This document shows positions 27,756 through 41,976 of a DNA stretch of 64,000 nt, piece after piece (position 1 is the stretch's first letter; the number at the start of each line of letters is the position of its first letter). This DNA is from Bacteroidales bacterium (GTDB lineage Bacteria > Bacteroidota > Bacteroidia > Bacteroidales > UBA4181). The stretch spans positions 17,318 to 81,317 of the forward strand of contig JAISOY010000211.1 in assembly GCA_031275285.1 (NCBI GenBank), in the 5' to 3' direction. The translations under genes were made by a program, and so were the position numbers. The notes under the pieces are model-generated. The model made no database searches. It was not told the DNA's origin and saw only the letters and a list, made by a program, of their open reading frames with translations.

Positions 27756-28427
27756 TTACAGAATGGTACTTTGATCAAAATAATCCTGATCATCCGCATA
27801 GATGAAGATCAAAGTCCCTTCTTTTATGGTATCGATAATGGTCTTGCTGATTGATTTGGGAAGTGCCGGACAACCGAAACTTCGTCCCAAACGTCCTGCT
27901 GAAGCAATGACGGAAGGGTCGGCATAAGTAGCGCTATGGATCACGATAGCACGTTCTTTTGCACGGTCGTTGATTCCTTTTTCAAGGCCGTCAATAATCA
28001 GGGAGTAGCCATGTTTTCCCTGATAAGTATTTTCAGTGATAAAAAAACCTAATGAACTTTTATTCGATCCCCTTTCATTGGAAAAAGAGGTGGCATAATT
28101 TCCGCCGCTATTCTTACCGTGCGATACATGCGTCGAATACAGGATTTTTTTCTGTTTCATGTCCAACACATAAAGACGTTCCTCTGTCGATGGTTTTGAA
28201 AAGTCAATCAACGTGACCACATCTTTGTTTTTGGCATTTAATTTCTGATACCCGGTAACAGCGTATTCAAATGCCGTATAATTGACTACATGCTCCAACT
28301 CCATTTCTGTATAAAGTTGCTGACTCTCTGATAAAACCAATTCTTCTGAATCCCGTTCTTTACTCAACAGAAAATTGATCGGCAAGCAAAGAAACCATAC
28401 ACTAAAAAAGATAAAATATTTCTGCAT
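27756..28427 (-). CDS. Murein L,D-transpeptidase catalytic-domain family protein (YkuD_2-like)
   Basis: Signal peptide, VSHGKNSG, IVIHSA and SFGCPAL (catalytic Cys context). Confidence 0.78.
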   Translation of the reverse strand: MQKYFIFFSVWFLCLPINFLLSKERDSEELVLSESQQLYTEMELEHVVNYTAFEYAVTGYQKLNAKNKDVVTLIDFSKPSTEERLYVLDMKQKKILYSTHVSHGKNSGGNYATSFSNERGSNKSSLGFFITENTYQGKHGYSLIIDGLEKGINDRAKERAIVIHSATYADPSVIASAGRLGRSFGCPALPKSISKTIIDTIKEGTLIFIYADDQDYFDQSTIL

Positions 28428-28471
28428 GCCACAATTAAAACAACTTTTGTGCCAAATACCTATAATTGATT

Positions 28472-29509
28472 TCAGTCAAAAACAAAAACAAGTGTCTCTT
28501 CAACAGGAGCCCAGTCAAAAATGAACCTGGCATGCGAGGTGGCATTCCGTACACACATATGTGAACGGGGAGTTGTTCCGAGTGTCGGGATATATTCAAT
28601 GATCTCTGTGTGTGGAAGATTTACCGGAACCCCATGTATGTATCCTCCATTGGAAAAACGACTGGCATAAGGTGCGAATCCGCCTATTTCCGTAGTCCCG
28701 TCTTTATAAAAAAACATCTGGCCTTTTTTCCCCTGGATTACAAAAATTCCGGTAGGGGTTGCGCGTTCAAAAGGCGGTTTACGGCGACCCGTAGTTGCCG
28801 GATTCATACTTCTTATCAACCATATTGCACCCACTTTTTCAAGCACTGTGATATTTTGATTGGTACGGTCAACGAAAATGGCTTTTTTGAAGATGACCGT
28901 ATCATTGATCGGCCTGATATATTTTTTGGGAACCAGCCACTCTCCTTCAATACTGATTACATCTATTTTTGTAAATCCGGCAGTATCCGCAATATATTTA
29001 ACAAGCGAACCGTCTTTTCCATATCGTTCCGCAACCGTCCGGTTATCCGGAAAAAATAAAGGGACCGATTGATTCTGGTCGACTCCGAAAGCATCGGATA
29101 TGCTGTTATACTCATTTTTATGATTTACTTTAACTACCGGCGCTTTCCCGTTCATATTCCTGTAATTTTGTAAAATGCCCCAACGTACGTTTCCTTGTTG
29201 GATTGAATCAAGGAATACCAGATGCCTGCGTATTTTATCCCATTGAAATTTGCGAACGGTACTTTCATATGGAAAACTGTCCGGTAGCGTATATTGGTCA
29301 TAAAGGAAATCCTTTTCCATCTCTACAGTCATGGGAGCTATTTTTCTGGAAATTATCCCTGTATGAGAATCTGTTTGATCAGGTAAAGATATAACATTCG
29401 TTTCCCGGGATAGTCTTTTTATTGTTTTCACAGAACAGGATTCTGATAATAAGACTATTGTCAGTAATGGTGCAATTATCTTTTGAATAGGTTTTATCCG
29501 GTGTAGCAT
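28472..29509 (-). CDS. L,D-transpeptidase family protein (YkuD domain)
   Basis: C-terminal YkuD signature IHGVPV...TPRSHMCVRN. Signal or lipoprotein N-terminus. Confidence 0.8.
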   Translation of the reverse strand: MLHRIKPIQKIIAPLLTIVLLSESCSVKTIKRLSRETNVISLPDQTDSHTGIISRKIAPMTVEMEKDFLYDQYTLPDSFPYESTVRKFQWDKIRRHLVFLDSIQQGNVRWGILQNYRNMNGKAPVVKVNHKNEYNSISDAFGVDQNQSVPLFFPDNRTVAERYGKDGSLVKYIADTAGFTKIDVISIEGEWLVPKKYIRPINDTVIFKKAIFVDRTNQNITVLEKVGAIWLIRSMNPATTGRRKPPFERATPTGIFVIQGKKGQMFFYKDGTTEIGGFAPYASRFSNGGYIHGVPVNLPHTEIIEYIPTLGTTPRSHMCVRNATSHARFIFDWAPVEETLVFVFD

Positions 29510-30873: not shown

Positions 30874-31227
30874 AATTGAAAGCTAAATTAGAAAATTATC
30901 ATTCAATCGTAAAGAATGTTGAAAAATAATTTGTGTTAATTCTGTTGACATAGGTTTACGGCCGGATGACGATAAATTGATTGATGAATAAAGAAATTGA
31001 AATACAGCAGCACAACTAAAACATTACTGAAACAGCTATTTGGCGATGATGCCGATAAAAAATCTTGATATTTAAGAAGAAAAGAAATTTAATAACTGTA
31101 GTTAAAATTAGCATTGAAAAATTATTAAATGCTTGTTAGCAATGTCTTAGTCAAGTCACAACGATCGGTCAGTTCATTTTATTCATGCGAAGCATACCAT
31201 ATTGACGATTTTCCGTTCAAGCGAAGC

Positions 31228-31297
31228 CGGAGGCGGAGCGCGTTAAAATCGTTAAGCCGTTTTTGATTACTTTTTGCGGCGTCAAAAAGTAATGAAG
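31228..31297. repeat. Intergenic hairpin element (GC-rich GAAGCCGGAGGCGGAGCG, then AAGCCGTTTTTGAT, then a 10-bp stem)
   Basis: TTACTTTTTG (31267-76) and CAAAAAGTAA (31283-92) form a perfect stem with loop CGGCGT. It has the same architecture as the element at 395-446. Confidence 0.5.
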
Positions 31298-31473
31298 ATA
31301 AATTAAAGTGATTTAACAACGTTATTATAAACTTGGCCAATTTGATATGTAATTATTTGATTTTTAGGCAAAATATTTTTTTCTGTAAATAAAATTAATT
31401 TTATTAAAAAATAAACCTTTACTTTGCATTTAAAAGTACTTTTAATTACAATAATTTATTAATGTGAATACAC

Positions 31474-33981
31474 ATGAAAGAAATAATTAATGACAAGCCT
31501 TATCTGGTTGGACTGGGCTTTATTTTTGTTAGTTTTCTTGTTTATTTAGCCGGAATGAATGTAGAGGGGGATGCTACGCTGGGGCTTTTTTTTGTGAATT
31601 ATATTTTTACAGCCATTGCATGGGTGTATTTGGCCATTTCAGTTATATTTTTCCGCAAGACATTCCGTTTCTTCCGCATCTTTCCTGTTCTGGTGTTATC
31701 GCTGATCAGTGCTTATTCTTTGAACAGGTTTATGAATCTGTTCGATACCTCTCCGCTATGGTTTTTCCTTGTGCTTGTGTTGGTCTCGTTGGCCTGTTTA
31801 TCATTGGCGGGATTCAGGGGGATGAACCGTTATTTTCAATGGCTGGTATTGACATTGGTCGGGGTGGGAATAGTTGTGTTTTTCTATCTGGGTATTTACC
31901 TGATTCCCGCATATCCGGTCAGTGCGTTTCTTTTCTGGGTGTTGGGAATTTCTTTGCATAGTTTTGTTCCATTACTTTTTTTGATATTTATTTTTATATG
32001 GATATTCCGTTATACCCGGAAAGGCGAAATGGCAGTAAAGGGTTTGTATGCCGGGAGCGGATTGGTACTTATCCTGGCAATCATATTTACCTTCCGGTGG
32101 GCTTCGGTGGTCAATGGCATTAATGATACTTATCAGGAGTCATTTGCTGAAGATGATGTAACATTGCCGGCCTGGGTCAGGGTATCCCAGCGTATCCCCA
32201 GGAATAACATTACCAATAAAGCATTGAAGGTAGGACTTACTTACGTTTTACCCGATTTTAACACACTAAACCTTTCCAACTTCCGTTTTTCTACGGGATT
32301 TACAGAGCAGCAGCTGCATGATCCGTTCATTGTTGTGGCGGCACTCGTCGCCGGACAACCCCGTCTTAATGACGAAGAAAAAATAAAAATACTGGAAAGT
32401 ATCTACGATTCGCGTCATCAGGCAACCGAACGATTATGGAGCGATGAGGGGATCAAAACCACTTATGTGAACTCTTCCATACAGATATGGCCTCAATTTC
32501 GTATGGCGTATACAGAGCAAATCATCATGCTCAGGAATACCCGGATCGGATGGCGGGATACCGGTGAAGCCGTATATACTTTTCATTTGCCCGAAGGTTC
32601 GGTAGTGACTTCACTTTCTTTATGGATCAACGGTGAAGAGGAAAAAGGGATACTGACCACTAAGGGTAAAGCCGATTCGGCATACCGGACAATCGTAGGT
32701 GTGGAGGCCCGGGACCCGTCATTGGTGCATTGGCAGGAGGGGTCAACTGTAAGCGTGCGTGTTTTTCCGGTCACATCAAAAGAAGAACGGGTATTTAAAA
32801 TAGGTATTACGTCCCCTTTAAGGAAAAAAGAAACAAAGCTCGTGTATGAACCCGTTTATTTTGAAGGTACCGACTGCAGTAAAGCAAGAGAAACCATCCA
32901 TGTCCGATTTATGGATGAACCTCTACAGTTGAAATATCCGCCGTTTATGGGAAAAAACCACACAGGTCTGGAAAGTAAACGGAAAAGCAGGTACAAGAGC
33001 AACTGGACAATTTCTATGGATGATCCTGGTTTATCCGTCGAGCCCTTCTGTTTTGATGCACATTGCTATCATATACAGGAACTTCAGTCAAAGGAAGTGC
33101 AGGTTGATATAAAAGAAGTGTATCTGGATGTAAACCGCTCATGGAGCAAAAAAGAATTCGATGCTGTGTGGAATGCTTCGGATGGCAGAAAAGTAAAGGT
33201 ATTCAACGGTCAGGAAATGGTTACGGTAAATTCAGGAAATAAAGACGAGGTATATCGTGATTTGAGTAAGCTTCAGTTTTCTCTTTTCCCGGTTCACCTG
33301 ATTAATAAAACGGACCAAAGCCTGCTGATAAGCAAGAGTACTTCCGCTTCTCCCAATTTATCCGATTTAAAGGATAGTCGCTTTTTCAGAAAAATGAAAT
33401 CTGCATTACATCCGGAACAATCTGTATATTTTCTGGACATAGGAGAAACATTGTCTCCATACCTGAAAACTCTCCGGGAATACCGGTTATTGAATTATCG
33501 GAAAGGAAATATTGAGGATGTATATAAAACAATGAAACAATCTGTTTTTTTGCAGGCTTCGCTTGAAAATGATCATCAGGTGGCGGTACACGATGCGGGA
33601 ATTAATATCATCAAACAATCCGGGTCTTTAACAGGAAATGCTCCCGACCACCTGATGCGTTTGTTTGCTTACAACCATATCATGTTCCGTTATGCCGGCA
33701 GTTGGAACTCGGTTTCAACACTTACCGAAGAAATGGTGGAAGAAGCCCGGCAAGCCTATGTCGTTTCGCCGGTCTCGAGTCTTGTTGTGCTGGAATCCCA
33801 GAAGGATTACGAACGTTTTGGCATTACAGATGCAGACAATAGCCTGAAGAACGCATCGAAAAAATCGAAGGGTGCCATACCTGAGCCTCACGAATGGGCA
33901 TTATTACTCATTGTAATAGCCGTGACGTGTTATCTGTATATCCGTAAAAAGAATCCTGACTTTTTGATCAGAAAAATATAA
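31474..33981 (+). CDS. Polytopic VIT-domain protein with a C-terminal PEP-CTERM-type sorting signal (XrtN-system VIT protein-like)
   Basis: About 8 hydrophobic helices in the first ~215 aa. VIT-like segment VYTFHLPEGSVVTSLSLWINGEEEKGILTTKGKADSAYRTIV...VSVRVFPV (~32560-32840). C-terminus ...IPEPHEWALLLIVIAVTCYLYIRKKNPDF has PEP at 33880-33888, then a TM helix, then basic residues. Confidence 0.8.
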   Translation: MKEIINDKPYLVGLGFIFVSFLVYLAGMNVEGDATLGLFFVNYIFTAIAWVYLAISVIFFRKTFRFFRIFPVLVLSLISAYSLNRFMNLFDTSPLWFFLVLVLVSLACLSLAGFRGMNRYFQWLVLTLVGVGIVVFFYLGIYLIPAYPVSAFLFWVLGISLHSFVPLLFLIFIFIWIFRYTRKGEMAVKGLYAGSGLVLILAIIFTFRWASVVNGINDTYQESFAEDDVTLPAWVRVSQRIPRNNITNKALKVGLTYVLPDFNTLNLSNFRFSTGFTEQQLHDPFIVVAALVAGQPRLNDEEKIKILESIYDSRHQATERLWSDEGIKTTYVNSSIQIWPQFRMAYTEQIIMLRNTRIGWRDTGEAVYTFHLPEGSVVTSLSLWINGEEEKGILTTKGKADSAYRTIVGVEARDPSLVHWQEGSTVSVRVFPVTSKEERVFKIGITSPLRKKETKLVYEPVYFEGTDCSKARETIHVRFMDEPLQLKYPPFMGKNHTGLESKRKSRYKSNWTISMDDPGLSVEPFCFDAHCYHIQELQSKEVQVDIKEVYLDVNRSWSKKEFDAVWNASDGRKVKVFNGQEMVTVNSGNKDEVYRDLSKLQFSLFPVHLINKTDQSLLISKSTSASPNLSDLKDSRFFRKMKSALHPEQSVYFLDIGETLSPYLKTLREYRLLNYRKGNIEDVYKTMKQSVFLQASLENDHQVAVHDAGINIIKQSGSLTGNAPDHLMRLFAYNHIMFRYAGSWNSVSTLTEEMVEEARQAYVVSPVSSLVVLESQKDYERFGITDADNSLKNASKKSKGAIPEPHEWALLLIVIAVTCYLYIRKKNPDFLIRKI

Positions 33982-33992
33982 TTGCGGTATTG

Positions 33993-35351
33993 ATGGTCGC
34001 ATTGTTGAAACAATTTAATCTATGGAGCGCTGGTAAGATCATCTTTGTCTTATCTGTTTTTTCCTGTATATTGCTTGTCATCTTGTTCTTTCGTGAATAT
34101 CTGTCTGCCCAGTTATTCAATCTGGCTTTGGGTGTAATCGTGATCCCTTTTGCCATAAAGATAAATTCCCGGAAAAAAGGATCTTTCCGTTTTGCGATAG
34201 TGGCCGTATCGTTTATGCTTCTCTCATTTTATGTTCCGGTGCATACATTTATTTACTTCGCCCTGATCTCTGTTTTGCTTTTTCTGGTAGAATCACGTTT
34301 TGGGCGGATCAATTTTCTGACTGTTGTCGTAGCGGTTTTGGTCATGCCTATTACCAGCTATTTATTGAATACTTTTAGTTTTCCTGTTCGGATATGGCTG
34401 ACTTCTGTTTGTGGATATTTATTCGGCCTGGCAGGGGTTCCGGTCGTAATAGCCGGCAATACGATTGTTTTTGATGGAGTCGATTTTACAGTAGATCCGG
34501 CTTGTATGGGGCTCAGTATGTTGACCACTTCTTTTCTTGTCGGGGTACTCCTGCTTGGTTTTTATCAGAAACAGTGCAAAAAAGAACTTCCGGTATGGGG
34601 TGTCTGCTTGTATTTATTGATCATTCTCCTCTTGAATGTATTTTCTAATCTTATCAGAATGATGGTATTGGTGTTGTTTCAGGTGATGCCTGAAACAATC
34701 ATGCACGATATCGTCGGGATCATTTGTTTTTCGGTACAGGTGATCTTGCCTGCTTGGATCATCAGCCGGTTAATGATGATGAAACTCGGAAAGCAAAGTA
34801 AAGAGGACAATCGTATTTTCCGGAAAAATACCGGAAAACTTTTCTACATACCTGTTCAGATTGCTTGTTGCCTGTTGTTATGGATGGCAACATTACATGT
34901 TTCGGACAAAAAAATATCTGGTGAACTGCAAACAATGCATGTACCCGGTTATGAAACTACCCGGCACTCACAGGGTATTTTTAAACTGGAGAACAATAAT
35001 TCACTGGTATATGTGAAACGTATCCGGTGGTTTTGCGATACCGAACATAATCCGATGATATGCTGGAAAGGTAGCGGCTATACTATCACCCAGGTTCAGG
35101 AAACTGTTCGGGGTGACTTTTCCATATATACAGGAATACTTTATAACGGGCAGGATGTCCTGTATACGGCATGGTGGTATACGAACGGGTATTCGATGAC
35201 CAACAGCCAGCTGCATTGGCGCTGGGATATGCTCAAAGGCGCTCATCCTTACTCTTTGGTAAACGTAACAGTAGCCAGCAAAGAAGAACTGGAGTCCGGA
35301 ATATCAGAAATGATCGGCCTTGCCCATGAAGTTGTAGCATTTCGTTTTTAG
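33993..35351 (+). CDS. Exosortase (XrtN-like) with a fused C-terminal EpsI-like domain
   Basis: Multi-TM protein with the exosortase triad contexts: DPACMGLS (Cys codon 34503-05), SNLIRMMVL (Arg) and MHDIVGI (His). The C-terminal ~160 aa are soluble and contain HNPMICWKGSGY, which resembles the EpsI H-x-P-x-x-C-x-x-G-x-G-W/Y motif. It starts 11 nt after the VIT gene stop. Confidence 0.78.
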   Translation: MVALLKQFNLWSAGKIIFVLSVFSCILLVILFFREYLSAQLFNLALGVIVIPFAIKINSRKKGSFRFAIVAVSFMLLSFYVPVHTFIYFALISVLLFLVESRFGRINFLTVVVAVLVMPITSYLLNTFSFPVRIWLTSVCGYLFGLAGVPVVIAGNTIVFDGVDFTVDPACMGLSMLTTSFLVGVLLLGFYQKQCKKELPVWGVCLYLLIILLLNVFSNLIRMMVLVLFQVMPETIMHDIVGIICFSVQVILPAWIISRLMMMKLGKQSKEDNRIFRKNTGKLFYIPVQIACCLLLWMATLHVSDKKISGELQTMHVPGYETTRHSQGIFKLENNNSLVYVKRIRWFCDTEHNPMICWKGSGYTITQVQETVRGDFSIYTGILYNGQDVLYTAWWYTNGYSMTNSQLHWRWDMLKGAHPYSLVNVTVASKEELESGISEMIGLAHEVVAFRF

Positions 35352-35467: not shown

Positions 35468-35701
35468 ATGGAGTTTTTCCTGTTTTTTGCTACAGCAGCA
35501 ATAGCACAGGAATTTACCGTGAACGGAATTAAGTATGAAACAACCGGAATCAATCAGGTGAAAGTCATCACAAATAATTATACCAGAAAGATCATTATTC
35601 CAAAATCAGTAGTCCGTTCAGGAAAAACATATTCCGTAACAGCTATCGGGAACGAGTTGCAGGCTTTAAAGAATAATGCATGGAAATATTTTTGTTGGTG
35701 A
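35468..35701 (+). pseudogene. Truncated remnant of a BspA-like leucine-rich-repeat surface protein
   Basis: FTVNGIKYETTGINQVKVI...IIIPKSVVRSGKTYSVTAIGNE matches the usual N-terminal module of BspA-type LRR proteins. The match then breaks off after 77 aa and runs into the deoC start region. Confidence 0.45.
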
Positions 35702-37175: not shown

Positions 37176-38138
37176 TTATCTGGGAACTTCTATCTTCTGG
37201 ATGATCTGTCTGACCATATCGTCCGGGCTGGAGCCTTCCATTTCTTTTTCGGGAGAAAGCATGATCCTGTGCCGGAGAACAGGATAAGCCAGTTCCTGGA
37301 TATCTTCAGGGGTAATGAAGTCACGTCCCTGCATGGCAGCCCAGGCTTTTGTCCCATTCAATAAAGCTATAGAGGCACGTGGGGAAGCACCCAGGTACAA
37401 AGCTGGGTTTCCTCTGGTTGCAGCAACTATCTGGGCAATATATTCCAATAAATCCGGTTTTACATATACCGATTGAATCGAGGAACGCAGATTCCGGATA
37501 ATATCGGCATTCAGTACTTTGGGAAGATCGGTGGTTTGTGCAAATAACCCGTTATTGTGGCGTTGCATGATTTCAACTTCCTGAACTGTATCAGGATAAC
37601 TCACCAGGATTTTAAACATGAAACGATCCAGTTGCGCTTCCGGAAGCCGGTAAGTACCTTCCTGGTCAATAGGATTTTGTGTGGCAACTACCATGAACGG
37701 ATACGACATCGGATAGGTGACGCCATCATAAGTTACCTGACGTTCTTCCATTACCTCAAATAATGCGGCCTGGGTTTTGGCCGGGGCACGGTTGATCTCG
37801 TCGGTAAGGATGATATTGGCGAATACCGGTCCGTTCCTGAATTCAAAAATGCCTTTGGCAGGAAGATATACAGACGATCCTGTTACATCCGAAGGCATTA
37901 AATCCGGTGTAAATTGTATCCGGCTGAATCCGGCATCAACGATCTCAGCAAGGAGTTTCGCCGAAAGGGTTTTAGCCACACCGGGAACTCCTTCAATCAG
38001 TACATGGCCTTCTGATAAAATAGCGACCAGCAATAAGTCTATCATCTGTTGCTGACCCACAATCAGTTTGCCAATGGATTCCCTGGCCGATTGTATCCGT
38101 TCGTTCAATTGTGAAAAATCAATGCGTGCTTCAAACAT
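37176..38138 (-). CDS. MoxR-family AAA+ ATPase
   Basis: 320 aa: Walker A GVPGVAKT, Walker B ILTDEINRA, MVVATQNP, and a MoxR-type C-terminus. Confidence 0.93.
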   Translation of the reverse strand: MFEARIDFSQLNERIQSARESIGKLIVGQQQMIDLLLVAILSEGHVLIEGVPGVAKTLSAKLLAEIVDAGFSRIQFTPDLMPSDVTGSSVYLPAKGIFEFRNGPVFANIILTDEINRAPAKTQAALFEVMEERQVTYDGVTYPMSYPFMVVATQNPIDQEGTYRLPEAQLDRFMFKILVSYPDTVQEVEIMQRHNNGLFAQTTDLPKVLNADIIRNLRSSIQSVYVKPDLLEYIAQIVAATRGNPALYLGASPRASIALLNGTKAWAAMQGRDFITPEDIQELAYPVLRHRIMLSPEKEMEGSSPDDMVRQIIQKIEVPR

Positions 38139-38161
38139 ATCTGTTTTATTTGAGATTAATA

Positions 38162-39352
38162 TCAGTGATGTAAGGTACTTTCATGAAAATCTTCTAGGGT
38201 TTTGTTCAGTTTTTCCAATTCATCGGCAGTCAGGCTGTTTTGTTTTCCGACCTGTTCGATTTTCCATACCAGATATTGCGTCTTGTCTTGAGGATAGCCC
38301 GATTTCAGGGAAAGCATATGTGTAAATTCTTCATCCAGGGTATGGGTTGGTAAGTGGTACAGGTTGCGTACCTGTTCCAGGAAAAAAGTGATCTTTTTTC
38401 TGGCAATGCTTTGATGATCCTGTTTTTGATAATACAGCCGGCTGACAACATTCAAAAAGTCGAGGGTGGTATTCCTGAGCGGACGTACTACCGGAATGAT
38501 CCGTTGACGACGTTTCCCTTCGATCAGGATAAAGAACAATATGCCGAATATGCTTGTGTAATACGCCCAACGCATTTGAGGTCGCTGCATGACTACATGC
38601 AATAGGCTTGTTGCGCCGGCTCTTCCCTGTTTCAGATATTCATCCCAGATAACCGTTTTTCCGGGAGGTAAATATGATAATGCTTTAAAGGCATAATCGG
38701 AAGTGGTATCGTTCAGGACATAGTAATTGGAAAAAGCCAAAGGTAAAAGATGCAGGTAAATGTTTCCTTTTCCATGATCGATCCTGATAAAATTAGGTTT
38801 AGCTATTGTGTTTTTTCCAAGTATGGTATATTTTGACAAGGAGTCCGGTTCAAAAAAGAGGATGTTCGAGGTTTTCTGAAAACTATATGGCCGGGTATTC
38901 AGTTCCGGATGGGTGAAGGTGACGGATGTGTCACGCAATGCCTGTGCCAGTGTGTCATTGATCAGGAAATGGAGACTATCGGAAAGCATGCTTCCCGAAT
39001 GCATGTACTGGGTGGCAATGAATACAGAATTTCCTTTTGATATAAAATTCAACAGGCTTTTTGTATCGAGTTCGTCCAGGGATAGATTATTGCAGATAAA
39101 AATATAATGGGCTTCCAAAGTGCTGTCCTTTTCCAGGAAATTGTATGCCGGAACCCGTGCTTCTATGATTTCCTGCCCGGGGAATACCTCACCCATCAGA
39201 TTGTACAGGACGTGGGTGCCGAATGGAATTTTATCATTATTGGATAATGTTCTCGACCAGTTAATGGGTTTGGGCCGGTATACCTCAAAAAGGACTGCAG
39301 CCGCAAATATCAGGACCAGGATTACGACATATTTGATCTCGTTTTTTGTCAT
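38162..39352 (-). CDS. DUF4350-like membrane-anchored protein
   Basis: N-terminal TM followed by PKPINWSRTLSNNDKIPFGTHVLYNLM, typical of the Bacteroidota DUF4350 proteins found next to MoxR. A second TM lies near residue 270. It has an ATGA overlap with the upstream gene. Confidence 0.7.
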   Translation of the reverse strand: MTKNEIKYVVILVLIFAAAVLFEVYRPKPINWSRTLSNNDKIPFGTHVLYNLMGEVFPGQEIIEARVPAYNFLEKDSTLEAHYIFICNNLSLDELDTKSLLNFISKGNSVFIATQYMHSGSMLSDSLHFLINDTLAQALRDTSVTFTHPELNTRPYSFQKTSNILFFEPDSLSKYTILGKNTIAKPNFIRIDHGKGNIYLHLLPLAFSNYYVLNDTTSDYAFKALSYLPPGKTVIWDEYLKQGRAGATSLLHVVMQRPQMRWAYYTSIFGILFFILIEGKRRQRIIPVVRPLRNTTLDFLNVVSRLYYQKQDHQSIARKKITFFLEQVRNLYHLPTHTLDEEFTHMLSLKSGYPQDKTQYLVWKIEQVGKQNSLTADELEKLNKTLEDFHESTLHH

Positions 39353-40095
39353 GACAGTAATCCTTTCAATTGATGATAATTGTCTGCTACATCAGCATAA
39401 TGTTTCTCGGTAATATCAAAATCTCCATACCAGACATATTCATATTGCCGGGTAAGTTCTGCAAACGGATTACGAAGTTTTTCACGGTTGATCTCACCCA
39501 GGTAAGAACGATTGGTTTTGTCCGGCTGCCAGTGTATTTGTCCGGCATCAGACAATAGTTTTAACATGATCAGATAGGTGAGGCGTACGGCCAGCCGGTA
39601 TTGTTGCTGGTCCAGTGCTTTTTCAAGCATCTTGTCCAGTTGGGCGGTACGGATATCCTGATCGATCGTCTTATCCGAAAGGTCGATTGTTTCCGGGGAA
39701 CTGAAGAAGATTCCGGATGTGTCTATTTTCAGCATTTTAAGCAGGACAAAAACAGCTGCAACAACCAACAGGATGATCAAAATCCGTTTGGTCCATTTTC
39801 CGGATACATCCGAGTCAAATACGCTCCGGAGCCATTTTTGCAGATAATATTTAACATGTTCCCAGAAAGTGGTAGGATATTGGACATCCCTGGTATACCT
39901 GAATTCGGGATTTCGCCGGAAACGATCCAGGGATGCTTCATCCGGTAGCCGGACAGTAACCGGGGAATGGTCTGTCGAAACGATTGGGGCGGAAATATCA
40001 TTTGGATCCTGTATTTCCATAGATACAGCTGCATCCGGCAGCAGGAATAAAGCAACCAGAACCAGGAATACAGTATATTTACACAAATCAGACAA
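39349..40095 (-). CDS. DUF4129-like protein
   Basis: Signal or TM segment, SLDRFRRNPEFRY, a central TM, and C-terminal WQPDKTNRSYL...YEYVWYGDF, typical of DUF4129. Confidence 0.7.
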   Translation of the reverse strand: MSDLCKYTVFLVLVALFLLPDAAVSMEIQDPNDISAPIVSTDHSPVTVRLPDEASLDRFRRNPEFRYTRDVQYPTTFWEHVKYYLQKWLRSVFDSDVSGKWTKRILIILLVVAAVFVLLKMLKIDTSGIFFSSPETIDLSDKTIDQDIRTAQLDKMLEKALDQQQYRLAVRLTYLIMLKLLSDAGQIHWQPDKTNRSYLGEINREKLRNPFAELTRQYEYVWYGDFDITEKHYADVADNYHQLKGLLS

Positions 40096-40118
40096 TGTGG
40101 CAATTGACTTGAAACGAT

Positions 40119-41033
40119 TTAAAACCCGCCTTCGTTTTCAGAAGTTTCTTCTTTTCCAAGCTGTTCTATTTTTTCCAGAAGACCAGTTCCTTCTTTCTTT
40201 TCGACCAGGTTAAAGTATTGGAATCCGAGAGCGAGTGTGGGCAATACCGACATCAGGTATGATCCCAGGAACAGGATCAGGGAACAGATAATGATCAGGA
40301 GATTTCCTGTTTCACCTATCTGCATGATCGCGGCTACACCCATTGAAACATAGAAGGGGATGGCAAAAACAACGGAAGCAATACCTACCACCAATCCCAT
40401 AACCAATAGGAGCCAAAAGGTAGCCCACCAGTTACTTCTGATCAGGAAAAAACTCCGGTTGATACTTTCGATCAATGGTTTTTTTTCGATGATCATGATG
40501 GGAAAAGTCAGGGAAACGGCTATGAAGATATAGAATAATAAGATAGAAGCCAGCAGGACTTTAAAAAACATCATGTTTTGAGGAATGGGTATGGCCACGA
40601 TGATCACCATAGCAAGGATCAATACGATAAAAAATACGATACCAAAGCCTATGATCGGTAAAATATATGTTTTGCCCCGGTTCCATATGGTTTCTATACT
40701 GATATTTCTGTTCCCTCCGGCATATTCGGCCATATATGCATATATGGCGATCATCATCCATAAGGAGGCCAGGCCCAGAAGTAAATTGGCGAAGATTCCT
40801 TCAAAAGCCGAATTCAGGGTAGTGAGCCCCTCATCTAAATCAAGTGACATTACATCTATAGCATTGGAATAAAGCATGCCGAACATAATACTGCCCAACA
40901 AAATCAAAGGACCTACAGTAAATAAGATGATTTTGAAAAGTGATTTGAAATTGAGTTGCACAAAGGAAAAAACCGCATTGAATTTTTCACCGAAATCGCG
41001 TATTTCGCGAAGATTAATTTCTTTATAGTTCAT
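40119..41033 (-). CDS. Polytopic membrane protein (unknown function)
   Basis: About 6-7 hydrophobic helices. Start chosen at the Met at 41033 (MNYKEINLREI), giving an 11-nt overlap with the upstream gene. The ORF-track start is 41105. Confidence 0.65.
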   Translation of the reverse strand: MNYKEINLREIRDFGEKFNAVFSFVQLNFKSLFKIILFTVGPLILLGSIMFGMLYSNAIDVMSLDLDEGLTTLNSAFEGIFANLLLGLASLWMMIAIYAYMAEYAGGNRNISIETIWNRGKTYILPIIGFGIVFFIVLILAMVIIVAIPIPQNMMFFKVLLASILLFYIFIAVSLTFPIMIIEKKPLIESINRSFFLIRSNWWATFWLLLVMGLVVGIASVVFAIPFYVSMGVAAIMQIGETGNLLIIICSLILFLGSYLMSVLPTLALGFQYFNLVEKKEGTGLLEKIEQLGKEETSENEGGF

Positions 41034-41976
41034 GGGTATTGGTTTGGTTAAGACGAATAGGATAAATAATGAAATAAAAAATGATAAAAGCCAGGGAGCT
41101 GCCAATAATGGTCAGGCTCATCCATACCGGCATTTCGGTATGCCTGGTGACGTATGATTCGAAAAAGGCGGCAATGATAAAGACAGGTACAAGTCCGGCA
41201 ACGATTTTCATGCCTCTCCGGACACCCCTGCTGAATGATTCGCTCCGGGAATAAGTGCCTGGGAATAAGATGCTGTTACCCATGACGAGTCCGGCACAAC
41301 CGGCAATCACGATGGCCGAAATTTCCAGTGTACCATGTATCCAGATCGTCAGGAGGGATTCGGTAAGTACCCCGTATTGAAAAAAGAAATACTGGAATGC
41401 CCCCAGCATTACACCATTTTGAAACAATACCATGACTGTTCCCATGGAAAAGAAGATGCCGAATACAAAGGCTAAAAAAGAAACCCGGATATTGTTGTAC
41501 ATAATGTAAACGAACATGGAACTTTCGTTTACACCTTTATATACGGCCATCGGGTCGCCTTTCCTGATATTTTCAATAGTCATGTTTACATAAGAATCCC
41601 CTAAAATGAGCCGGACAAAATTTTCATCTTTGGATGCGGAAAATGCTCCGATCAAGGCAGAGATCATAAAAATGACAAAGGCGGTCAATAATTGCCTGTG
41701 GGCTCCATAAAAGAGTTGGGGTAACTCCTTTTTCCAAAATGTAATAAACCGGCTGGCCGGTTGTTTTTTGTTTTTATAGAGATAGAGGTAATATTTTCCT
41801 GCCAGTTGATTCAGGTATCGCTCTGTGTTTGATTCCGGATAAAATGTACGGGCATAGGATAAGTCATCTGTTAATTCAATAAAAGCATCGGCCAACTCAT
41901 CAGCATTGTCGGATACATTTTTTTCAAACCTCGTCCATTTATCCTGGTTTTTCTGAACAAAAGTGATTTCGCGCAT
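41023..41976 (-). CDS. SpoIIM-family (stage II sporulation protein M-like) membrane protein
   Basis: The soluble N-terminal region MREITFVQKNQDKWTRFE... followed by a multi-TM core with GVMLGAF and HGTLEISAIVIAG is typical of the SpoIIM family. Confidence 0.72.
   Translation of the reverse strand: MREITFVQKNQDKWTRFEKNVSDNADELADAFIELTDDLSYARTFYPESNTERYLNQLAGKYYLYLYKNKKQPASRFITFWKKELPQLFYGAHRQLLTAFVIFMISALIGAFSASKDENFVRLILGDSYVNMTIENIRKGDPMAVYKGVNESSMFVYIMYNNIRVSFLAFVFGIFFSMGTVMVLFQNGVMLGAFQYFFFQYGVLTESLLTIWIHGTLEISAIVIAGCAGLVMGNSILFPGTYSRSESFSRGVRRGMKIVAGLVPVFIIAAFFESYVTRHTEMPVWMSLTIIGSSLAFIIFYFIIYPIRLNQTNTHEL

Follow-up and report, generated by a model that had tools for sequence, protein, structure and literature searches.

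A VIT-domain membrane protein and an exosortase-like protein are encoded side by side in a Bacteroidales MAG (Bacteroidota), which raises the question of whether the two constitute a sorting system of their own, one enzyme acting on one substrate. We analysed the 64,000-nucleotide stretch of DNA that carries both genes (the window), for which an earlier note had proposed an exosortase and a substrate with a PEP-CTERM tail. The best explanation as a whole, to which we assign a probability of roughly 0.8, is a dedicated two-gene protein-sorting module in which exosortase N (XrtN) cleaves the tail of the VIT protein.

Identity and setting of the gene pair

Both open reading frames were present where the earlier note had placed them. 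The first (31474-33981, forward strand, 835 aa) matched TIGR04477, "XrtN system VIT domain protein", over model positions 2-821 of 822 with 875.3 bits (curated cut-off 250; E 4e-263). The second (33993-35351, forward strand, 452 aa) matched TIGR04476, "exosortase N", over positions 6-406 of 406 with 345.8 bits (curated cut-off 200; E 4e-103). These E-values exclude a chance match for both proteins. In line with the proposed exosortase identity, the second protein also exceeded the cut-offs of the exosortase/archaeosortase signature TIGR04178 (32.2 bits, cut-off 23) and of Pfam PF09721 (64.4 bits, cut-off 25.7). Identical sequences of both proteins are catalogued in NCBI and JGI as exosortase N and XrtN-system VIT protein, and the names given in the earlier note proved to be the exact NCBIfam names, borne by the NCBI proteins of this MAG. 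The pair is thus already known and, judged by its sequence, is a typical copy of the catalogued Bacteroidota XrtN module: a predicted membrane cysteine protease beside a single predicted target. New support for the known pair comes from residue invariance, tail conservation, synteny, co-variation of PEP motif and XrtN, topology and an ITIH-like ectodomain. A full-text literature search found neither a biological paper that mentions XrtN or "exosortase N" nor an experiment on XrtN or any dedicated exosortase system, in agreement with the earlier statement on experimental characterisation.

The TAA of the VIT-protein gene (33979-33981) is separated by 11 nt, as previously stated, from the XrtN start codon on the same strand; this short gap counts in favour of the predicted co-transcription of the two genes. 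The start was assigned to the ATG at 33993 since the database exosortase N has 452 aa. An in-frame TTG lies just before it, at 33990.

Genes within ~22-45 kb encode AsnA, GS-III, an esterase, two YkuD proteins, a nitroreductase, Fer4, DeoC, CBS, MoxR, DUF4350 and DUF4129 proteins, DXS and a GFO oxidoreductase. No EPS or polysaccharide-synthesis genes flank the pair over this distance, as had been claimed, and neither glycosyltransferases nor lipid enzymes that could make an acceptor are among its conserved neighbours. An upstream HTH_34 regulator, a ~200-aa membrane protein and a CreD gene are found at about half of the other loci and are missing from this copy; apart from these optional neighbours, nothing of substance distinguishes it from other TIGR04476/TIGR04477 loci.

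Architecture of the VIT-domain protein

In the AlphaFold model of the 835-aa protein (pLDDT 87.7), eight helices (residues 8-26, 34-59, 66-86, 95-116, 119-142, 144-157, 159-180 and 185-225) build an N-terminal polytopic membrane anchor (aa 1-214, 31474-32115), which hydropathy and positive-inside analysis also delineate. The charge distribution fits seven full spans plus one short helix, so the original count of "about 8" hydrophobic helices was fair. The N-terminus is predicted to lie inside, with the last span leading out to the periplasm. No Pfam family matched the anchor, and a relationship to the exosortase fold was rejected (hhalign probability 0.9%).

The beta-sandwich region that follows (32452-33114; model strands 327-547) includes the central VIT-like segment noticed previously, which Pfam VIT (PF08487) matched at residues 364-443 (32563-32802) with 39.4 bits (cut-off 26.5). 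Residues 548-781 (33115-33816) alternate between strand and helix as a vWA-like alpha/beta domain, with a modified MIDAS loop, D552-V-N554-R-S556, that reads DxNxS instead of the canonical D-x-S-x-S; D552 is conserved in 54/54 sequences, N554 in 53/54 and S556 in 40/54. Foldseek aligned the ectodomain model with ITIH1 (6FPY/6FPZ) over ~590 columns (E 1.5e-14, probability 1.00). A profile search additionally matched the ectodomain to ITIH4 (E 0.016) with the LxRLxAY...V(S/T)PxxSxVV segment included, and alignment to ITIH4 identified the post-vWA segment LMRLFAYNHI...VVSPVSSLVVL as ITIH-like. The protein thus has the order of VIT domain and vWA fold that marks ITIH-like VIT-vWA proteins, and its entire ectodomain is modelled as one inter-alpha-inhibitor-heavy-chain-like unit.

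The protein ends in a tripartite C-terminal sorting signal (aa 800-835, 33871-33978), IPEPHEWALLLIVIAVTCYLYIRKKNPDF, with PEP at 33880-33888, a TM helix at 33889-33942 and an RKK basic cluster at 33943-33951. The motif reads G-A-I-P-E-P-H-E-W, then come the 18-aa TM helix and RKK, so the tail quoted in the earlier note is indeed there. AlphaFold places a low-confidence linker (799-804) before a helix (805-826), and Trp808 (33895-33897) is invariant (54/54). A tail of PEPxEW, TM helix and basic cluster was conserved in 110 of the 120 VIT-protein orthologues and at all 80 genome loci. The generic PEP-CTERM model TIGR02595 aligned end to end (positions 1-23 of 24) with 13.4 bits, below its cut-off of 16, which makes the tail a PEP-CTERM variant; of the proposed PEP-CTERM sorting signal, the architecture stands and the canonical sequence does not. 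The PEPxxWA-CTERM model NF035944 reached 11.9 bits (cut-off 35) with only model positions 1-11 aligned, although P-E-P-H-E-W-A literally fits the name of that family.

The protein has the VIT domain and, at its C-terminus, the motif, TM helix and basic residues that together characterise XrtN-system VIT proteins. With an N-terminal ~7-span anchor and a C-terminal TM helix, the apparent substrate is itself predicted to be an integral membrane protein, as first proposed. No second tail of PEP, TM helix and basic cluster was found among the 191 ORFs of the window or the 1,305 genes of the 80 loci (up to ~22 kb each); "one enzyme, one substrate" therefore holds for the window and these loci and is, for whole genomes, a prediction.

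Exosortase N and the predicted fate of the tail

XrtN (model pLDDT 91.4) contains the motifs DPACMG, NLIRMM and MHDIVG, starting at residues 168, 219 and 237, which had been recognised as exosortase Cys/Arg/His contexts. The predicted catalytic residues (34503-34706), Cys171 (34503-34505), Arg222 (34656-34658) and His238 (34704-34706), lie within the TIGR04178 match and are invariant in 118/118 homologues, which argues that XrtN has retained enzymatic activity. Cys, Arg and His have been named as the suspected exosortase/archaeosortase triad (Haft 2023 preprint, 10.1101/2023.06.07.544157). The positive-inside rule, applied to the K/R-rich loops 189-198 and 259-282, would put the three residues where TM helices end on the periplasmic side. 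Hydropathy and the same rule predict a periplasmic location for the PEP motif and both large domains as well, including the VIT domain, whose sidedness had been left to a topology check. The motif and the XrtN active site are thus predicted to share one side of the membrane.

Consistent with a functional link, XrtN lies directly downstream of the VIT gene in 79 of 79 testable loci from Chitinophagales, Sphingobacteriales, Cytophagales, Saprospiraceae and Bacteroidales, frequently with a 4-nt overlap, and the co-occurrence expected of the pair is thereby borne out. Looked up from the XrtN side, a VIT sequence was upstream in 3/3 cases, one of them a remnant. Such adjacency to a TIGR04477 protein in Bacteroidota is one mark of exosortase N, and by Haft's stated rule consecutive genes qualify a sorting system as dedicated and one-to-one (10.1101/2023.06.07.544157). 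VIT relatives without the PEP motif carry the tail P-x-G-D-L-N-x-W in its place, and XrtN-like sequence was absent from ~1.9-6 kb around their genes in 7/7 testable loci, six-frame search included. These relatives fall into at least four separate clades of a neighbour-joining tree, which has no bootstrap support and so leaves the number of independent PEP/XrtN transitions uncertain (2 to 4).

Cleavage by XrtN is itself a prediction, and the two proteins could instead cooperate, for example in a membrane complex, with the tail serving as a second anchor and PEP as a docking site. The sub-threshold score of the generic PEP-CTERM HMM would fit such an arrangement, as would the relatives with variant tails that function with no exosortase nearby. 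However, Cys, Arg and His are wholly invariant, loss of the PEP motif coincides exactly with loss of XrtN, and nothing separates the motif from the TM helix that it abuts, which is also true of processed PEP-CTERM, PGF-CTERM and GlyGly-CTERM signals (10.1101/2023.06.07.544157). We consider cooperation without cleavage very improbable.

In the cleavage module that we favour, the VIT protein would be held in the inner membrane by its N-terminal ~7-TM bundle and its C-terminal TM helix, with the ITIH-like VIT-vWA ectodomain (~590 aa) looped into the periplasm, an arrangement partly shown by sequence, hydropathy and the structure model. Exosortase N, a putative polytopic cysteine protease or transpeptidase with its invariant Cys, Arg and His presumably at the periplasmic membrane surface, would recognise VPEPHEW where the motif abuts the C-terminal TM helix and cut there. 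A thioester would form at Cys171, and the TM helix and basic tail would be discarded. We infer this cleavage from homology to ArtA, PEP/XrtN co-variation and one-to-one adjacency. Water might then resolve the acyl-enzyme, freeing the ectodomain C-terminus of a protein that is still N-terminally anchored; alternatively, the ectodomain might pass to the amine or hydroxyl group of an acceptor, for instance a glycan or the head group of a lipid. We prefer transfer to an acceptor, with low confidence. As the substrate keeps its N-terminal membrane anchor, neither release nor surface display is an obvious outcome of "sorting".

The retained 7-TM anchor also bears on whether XrtN might simply mature its substrate by proteolysis, taking off the C-terminal helix to activate or unlock the VIT-vWA module with no transfer, while the N-terminal bundle keeps the protein in the inner membrane. 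A new anchor would then be unneeded, and the pair has no linked pathway for making an acceptor. Furthermore, the relatives lacking both PEP and XrtN retain the C-terminal TM helix and the invariant Trp, which suggests that the doubly anchored form is functional and cleavage a regulatory add-on. Pure maturation is quite possible and falls only a little short of even odds; exosortase-family enzymes are, however, thought to couple cleavage with modification (10.1101/2023.06.07.544157; PMC7157517), and this reading does not account for an additional periplasmic domain that is conserved in XrtN.

This XrtN-specific alpha/beta domain (aa 312-452, 34926-35348), into which a ninth TM helix (aa 282-306) leads, contains the invariant block H352-x-P-x-x-C357-W-x-G-x-G362 (35046-35078). 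Apart from XrtN itself, no Pfam or NCBIfam family matched it. Of 626 matches in a profile search against 1.84 billion representatives, the best 150 were all XrtN-type and none EpsI-like. The HxPxxC block may resemble EpsI; an EpsI/DUF3485-like domain was rejected, with no EpsI match at E<=1 (Pfam) or E<=10 (NCBIfam). Alignments to XrtN of the long XrtD, XrtO, XrtW and XrtT models, in which an EpsI-like domain is fused to the exosortase, were confined to the membrane core. More speculatively, the periplasmic domain, HxPxxCWxGxG block included, probably serves as a docking site for the ectodomain or an acceptor.

XrtN could further be a true transpeptidase or transesterase that forms a covalent bond between the new ectodomain C-terminus and a lipid head group or cell-envelope glycan; the additional periplasmic domain could bind such an acceptor. 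This reading refines the best explanation, with cleavage kept, and would leave the protein anchored at its two ends or reaching from one envelope layer to another. The E-P-H-E-W motif has some likeness to the ITIH cleavage motif, which we take to be DPHFII and for which we found no literature source. The ectodomain is ITIH-like over ~590 columns, with the post-vWA segment common to ITIH4, and ITIH heavy chains shed a C-terminal pro-domain while their C-terminus becomes ester-linked to a glycan (PMC7170535). Transfer would thus mirror both this glycan esterification in animals and the lipid anchoring by ArtA, whose model has a thioester resolved by the amine of lipid ethanolamine (PMC7157517); the Cys/Arg/His set is also that of sortases, where transpeptidation is suspected (10.1101/2023.06.07.544157). 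Nevertheless, acceptor-synthesis genes are not conserved beside the pair, and even with ArtA and XrtA, transpeptidation in one step is explicitly regarded as unproven (10.1101/2023.06.07.544157). We hold the transfer reading tentatively, below even odds.

Relation to known systems

Overall, the interpretation of the pair as an XrtN exosortase and its VIT substrate is supported, and nothing that the earlier note had named as contrary evidence was found. Compared with the NCBIfam pair TIGR04476/TIGR04477, the adjacency, tail and phylum are the same, and both proteins are full-length, above-cut-off members. Another system of this overall design is suggested by MSEP-CTERM (TIGR04286), which matched residues 64-439 of the VIT protein (membrane and VIT region) at model positions 215-572. 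With 48.3 bits, the VIT protein falls well short of the 150-bit cut-off and is not a member; the weak but significant homology points to a paralogous dedicated system. Its signature is MSEP in place of VPEPHEW and its partner enzyme differs, presumably exosortase K in Bacteroidota, a pairing on which we found no paper.

The classical XrtA/PEP-CTERM/EPS-locus system (Haft 2006, PMC1569441) has in common with XrtN the exosortase fold, Cys/Arg/His, the tripartite signal and a motif abutting the helix. In contrast to XrtA, which is embedded in an exopolysaccharide locus and serves many Sec-secreted soluble substrates, XrtN has one polytopic membrane substrate, no EPS genes nearby, one more TM helix and a periplasmic domain particular to its family. 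Assignment to the XrtA type was rejected (31.6 bits on the XrtA model, whose cut-off is 208, no EPS genes, a single PEP-type tail in the window). ArtA of Haloferax volcanii, of the PGF-CTERM system, belongs to the same homologous superfamily, as the TIGR04178 match indicates; its Cys-173 is cited as an active-site residue, with a thioester model, and the C-terminal TM helix of its substrates is removed (PMC7157517). ArtA attaches lipid to many substrates, whereas the XrtN substrate is already anchored and the pair has no linked genes for lipid synthesis.

Finally, the animal proteins ITIH1-4 have the domain order VIT, vWA, post-vWA segment in common with the VIT protein, at a sequence identity of ~13%. 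The MIDAS is DxSxS in ITIH (D298, S300, S302 and D403 in ITIH1; PMC7170535) and DxNxS in the VIT protein, and the N-terminal 7-TM anchor is a feature of the bacterial protein. Glycan attachment belongs to ITIH and is for the VIT protein an analogy only. A C-terminal extension is removed in ITIH (PMC7170535), where the pro-domain measures ~240 aa, and is predicted to be removed in the VIT protein, where it is a 30-aa TM tag that exosortase N would cut.

Identity and predicted topology of the exosortase N pair

The VIT protein gene (31474..33981, + strand, 835 aa) is followed on the same strand by xrtN (33993..35351, 452 aa), with a gap of 11 nt between its TAA and the ATG of xrtN. The xrtN ORF is open from 33990; we placed its start at the ATG at 33993 because the database copy of the protein has 452 aa. 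In agreement with the family names given in the earlier note, the first protein matched NCBIfam TIGR04477 ("XrtN system VIT domain-containing protein") over its full length with 875 bits (cut-off 250) and the second matched TIGR04476 ("exosortase N") with 346 bits (cut-off 200). XrtN also scored above cut-off for the exosortase/archaeosortase signature TIGR04178 and for Pfam PF09721, while the XrtA, D, O, Q, T, V, W and CrtB models gave 18-35 bits, far under their cut-offs. Both identical proteins are already deposited in public databases, from a Bacteroidales MAG, under exactly these family names. Together with the model scores, this identifies a correctly recognised member of a curated family pair, which is already catalogued and ordinary as a locus. 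In a full-text literature search, XrtN, exosortase N, XrtK and MSEP-CTERM appeared in no biological paper, consistent with the previous statement that no experimental characterisation was known.

The sequence elements quoted in the earlier note were all recovered. The VIT-like segment corresponds to a Pfam VIT domain (aa 364-443, 39.4 bits), the tail consists of IPEPHEW, a hydrophobic helix and RKK, and the exosortase contexts DPACMG, NLIRMM and MHDIVG start at XrtN residues 168, 219 and 237. In the structure model of the VIT protein (pLDDT 87.7), eight helices at the N-terminus precede a beta-sandwich at 327-547 and a domain of alternating beta and alpha elements at 548-781; a linker of low confidence across 799-804 then leads to the terminal helix at 805-826. 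XrtN (pLDDT 91.4) was modelled as a helical membrane core, after which a K/R-rich loop and a ninth TM helix at 282-306 lead to an alpha/beta domain at 321-449. Judged by hydropathy together with the positive-inside rule, the N-terminus of the VIT protein is predicted to lie inside, with residues 214-804 in the periplasm and the RKK in the cytoplasm. For XrtN, the same analysis puts Cys171, Arg222, His238 and the C-terminal domain in the periplasm and the K/R-rich loop in the cytoplasm. With this predicted sidedness, the motif and the active site would come together on the outer surface of the inner membrane.

The N-terminal helix bundle of the substrate was rejected as a degenerate exosortase, as hhalign of the XrtN homologue alignment (A1) against A2 gave a probability of 0.9%. 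Nor did it match another known family, Pfam returning only a sub-threshold match to DUF998. The C-terminal domain of XrtN carries an invariant HxPxxCWxGxG block, and its profile matched 626 clusters among 1.84 billion representatives. The best 150 of these 626 matches were all XrtN-like, which suggests that, at HMMER sensitivity, the domain is confined to XrtN-type proteins. An EpsI-like nature received no support from Pfam or NCBIfam, and Foldseek yielded only weak PsbP/DcrB/SciW/LpqN-like matches (E ~0.08). Neither sequence search nor fold search returned a solved exosortase structure.

Conservation of the pair and co-variation of tail and enzyme

Cys171, Arg222 and His238 were invariant in 118 XrtN homologues and likewise in the alignment A1, so the Cys/Arg/His contexts pointed out previously do align with conserved positions. 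These three residues are the suspected triad of the exosortase/archaeosortase superfamily (Haft 2023 preprint, 10.1101/2023.06.07.544157), and Cys-173 of the archaeosortase ArtA has been cited as an active-site residue (PMC7157517). Conservation likewise bore out the proposed sorting signal: the PEPxEW motif, with a TM helix and basic residues behind it, was kept in 110 of 120 VIT-protein orthologues, with Trp808 invariant. The two genes also remain together across Chitinophagales, Sphingobacteriales, Cytophagales, Saprospiraceae and Bacteroidales. In 79 of 80 genome loci, the VIT gene had an XrtN homologue downstream in the same orientation, and since the 80th locus stops ~670 nt past the VIT gene, synteny held in all 79 informative loci. 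Looking up the pair in reverse, from XrtN, we found VIT sequence upstream in 3/3 cases, one of them a truncated and frameshifted remnant. In that case (L090:3686-4930), the XrtN gene P0174 of GCA_024708845.1 is preceded only by this remnant, whose HMM positions 439-830 are spread across four frames while the 5' half is absent; it represents a pseudogene or else an error of the assembly. Clear Bacteroidota-type XrtN pairs, or their proteins, also occurred in some bins labelled Bifidobacteriaceae, Beijerinckiaceae or Williamsia (L038, L063, P0099), and these contigs are probably mis-binned.

PEP is missing from eight of the 120 relatives (P0013, P0016-P0019, P0043, P0049 and P0061; loci L081-L089). 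Ahead of the helix they have P-x-[GS]-[DE]-[LIF]-x-x-W instead, still with the invariant Trp, and they keep the TM helix and basic residues. No exosortase gene was found near the VIT gene in the seven of these loci that were long enough, and a six-frame search of their flanks (1.9-6 kb) with the XrtN HMM found nothing. Across the combined samples, XrtN thus accompanied the PEP tail in 79/79 loci and the non-PEP tail in 0/7. In a neighbour-joining tree of the VIT proteins, calculated with the tails left out and without bootstrap, the variant proteins formed at least four separate all-variant clades inside one 21-member clade, which also holds 13 PEP-bearing members, including the protein from the window. 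As the tree is unbootstrapped, we count the transitions as two to four independent events. Among the comparative data, this co-variation argues most strongly for an action of XrtN on the PEP motif.

The most likely reading, to which we assign a probability of roughly 0.8, is that XrtN cuts the VIT-protein tail at the membrane's periplasmic surface through a Cys171 acyl-enzyme. The observations of the earlier note are confirmed, and its interpretation is supported. A partnership of the two proteins without any processing is very unlikely in view of the invariant Cys/Arg/His triad and of the co-variation between PEP and XrtN. The acyl-enzyme might be resolved by water (simple proteolysis) or by transfer to an acceptor; we rate the two as nearly equally likely, with simple proteolysis marginally ahead.

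Genomic surroundings

The proposal of one enzyme processing one substrate held within the 64-kb window and related loci of up to ~22 kb: the VIT protein was the only one among 191 ORFs of the window with a PEP-like motif, TM helix and basic C-terminus, and the same scan of 1,305 genes from related loci detected only the 80 VIT proteins. Polysaccharide-synthesis genes were absent from ~22 to 45 kb of the window, in line with the reported lack of flanking EPS genes.

None of the flanking genes in the window was a conserved companion of the pair in other genomes; the two YkuD L,D-transpeptidases, the MoxR operon and DeoC were thus rejected as parts of the system. The tandem, differing YkuD_2 and YkuD genes (27756-29509, - strand), ~2 kb upstream of the pair, are probably unrelated to it for this reason. 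MoxR ATPases frequently partner vWA proteins. The cluster of a MoxR AAA+ ATPase, DUF4350, DUF4129 and a membrane protein (37176-41105, - strand) is not a companion of the XrtN pair in other genomes, where only 2/80 loci have a MoxR homologue, and at a distance.

In other loci, the VIT gene is often preceded in the same orientation by an unannotated ~200-230-aa membrane protein (40/80 loci) and by a 97-99-aa protein of the HTH_34 winged-helix type (34/80), joined in some loci by a CreD-family gene (PF06123). Examples are L003:8445-9455, L081, L084, L087, L088, L089 and L091. CreD adjoins five of the eight variant-tail proteins. The three genes possibly represent a regulatory or envelope module, which is absent from the window. 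There, a 600-nt AT-rich spacer without ORF (30874-31473) separates the VIT gene from a divergent Fer4 gene. Rfam at gathering thresholds revealed no regulatory RNA or riboswitch in the whole window, spacer included. Sigma-70-type promoters (8 versus 13.4) and terminators (2 versus 4.6) were rarer than expected from shuffled sequence, and sigma-70-like sites in the spacer were not above chance, a result that is uninformative for Bacteroidota. Between xrtN and deoC, a short ORF (~35469-35700, + strand), beginning MEFFLFFATAAIAQEFTVNGIKYETTG...IIIPKSVVRSGKTYSVTAIGNE, resembles the N-terminal piece of a surface protein of the BspA/LRR_5 type and is probably what remains of a gene.

The XrtN pair compared with classical exosortases and ITIH heavy chains

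To our knowledge, the cleavage site, any transfer and the acceptor of exosortase action have never been demonstrated biochemically. Classical exosortase systems have dozens of substrates each and are hard to dissect for this reason. The XrtN system, in which a single enzyme and its one apparent substrate share an operon and which has carriers in culturable genera (Chitinophaga, Pedobacter, Mucilaginibacter, Niastella and Pontibacter), offers a tractable and simple model for exosortase chemistry, and this is its lasting interest rather than the locus itself. To the known pair, our analysis adds two concrete hypotheses, one from the ITIH-like VIT-vWA substrate and one from the loss of the PEP motif that tracks the loss of XrtN; a PEP-less, XrtN-less sister group is now at hand for comparison.

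The model of the VIT protein matched the animal inter-alpha-inhibitor heavy chain ITIH1 (6FPY/6FPZ) in Foldseek with an E value of 1.5e-14 over ~590 columns. The MIDAS loop reads D-x-N-x-S in the VIT protein versus D-x-S-x-S in ITIH1. The VIT-family sequence profile reached ITIH4 (E 0.016) with a match that takes in the segment after the vWA domain (LMRLFAYNHI...VVSPVSSLVVL versus MERLWAYLTI...FVTPLTSMVVT). In ITIH heavy chains, C-terminal pro-domains are removed as the new C-terminus becomes ester-linked to a glycan (PMC7170535). The XrtN substrate similarly bears a C-terminal tag that is predicted to be cut by a putative transpeptidase, and the parallel is suggestive. The ITIH cleavage motif, which we take to be DPHFII (a D-P-H site) and for which we found no literature source, can be likened to E-P-H-E-W of the VIT protein (E804-P805-H806). 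By this analogy, the XrtN/VIT pair would be a bacterial counterpart of ITIH maturation, with a cut of the ITIH-like VIT-vWA ectodomain at the acidic-Pro-His site E804-P805-H806 and covalent transfer of the new C-terminus to an envelope glycan or lipid, which we regard as unlikely. If true, the one-to-one pair would be the simplest model of what exosortases really do, and the XrtN-less relatives with P-x-G-D-L-N-x-W tails would represent a second way of tail handling.
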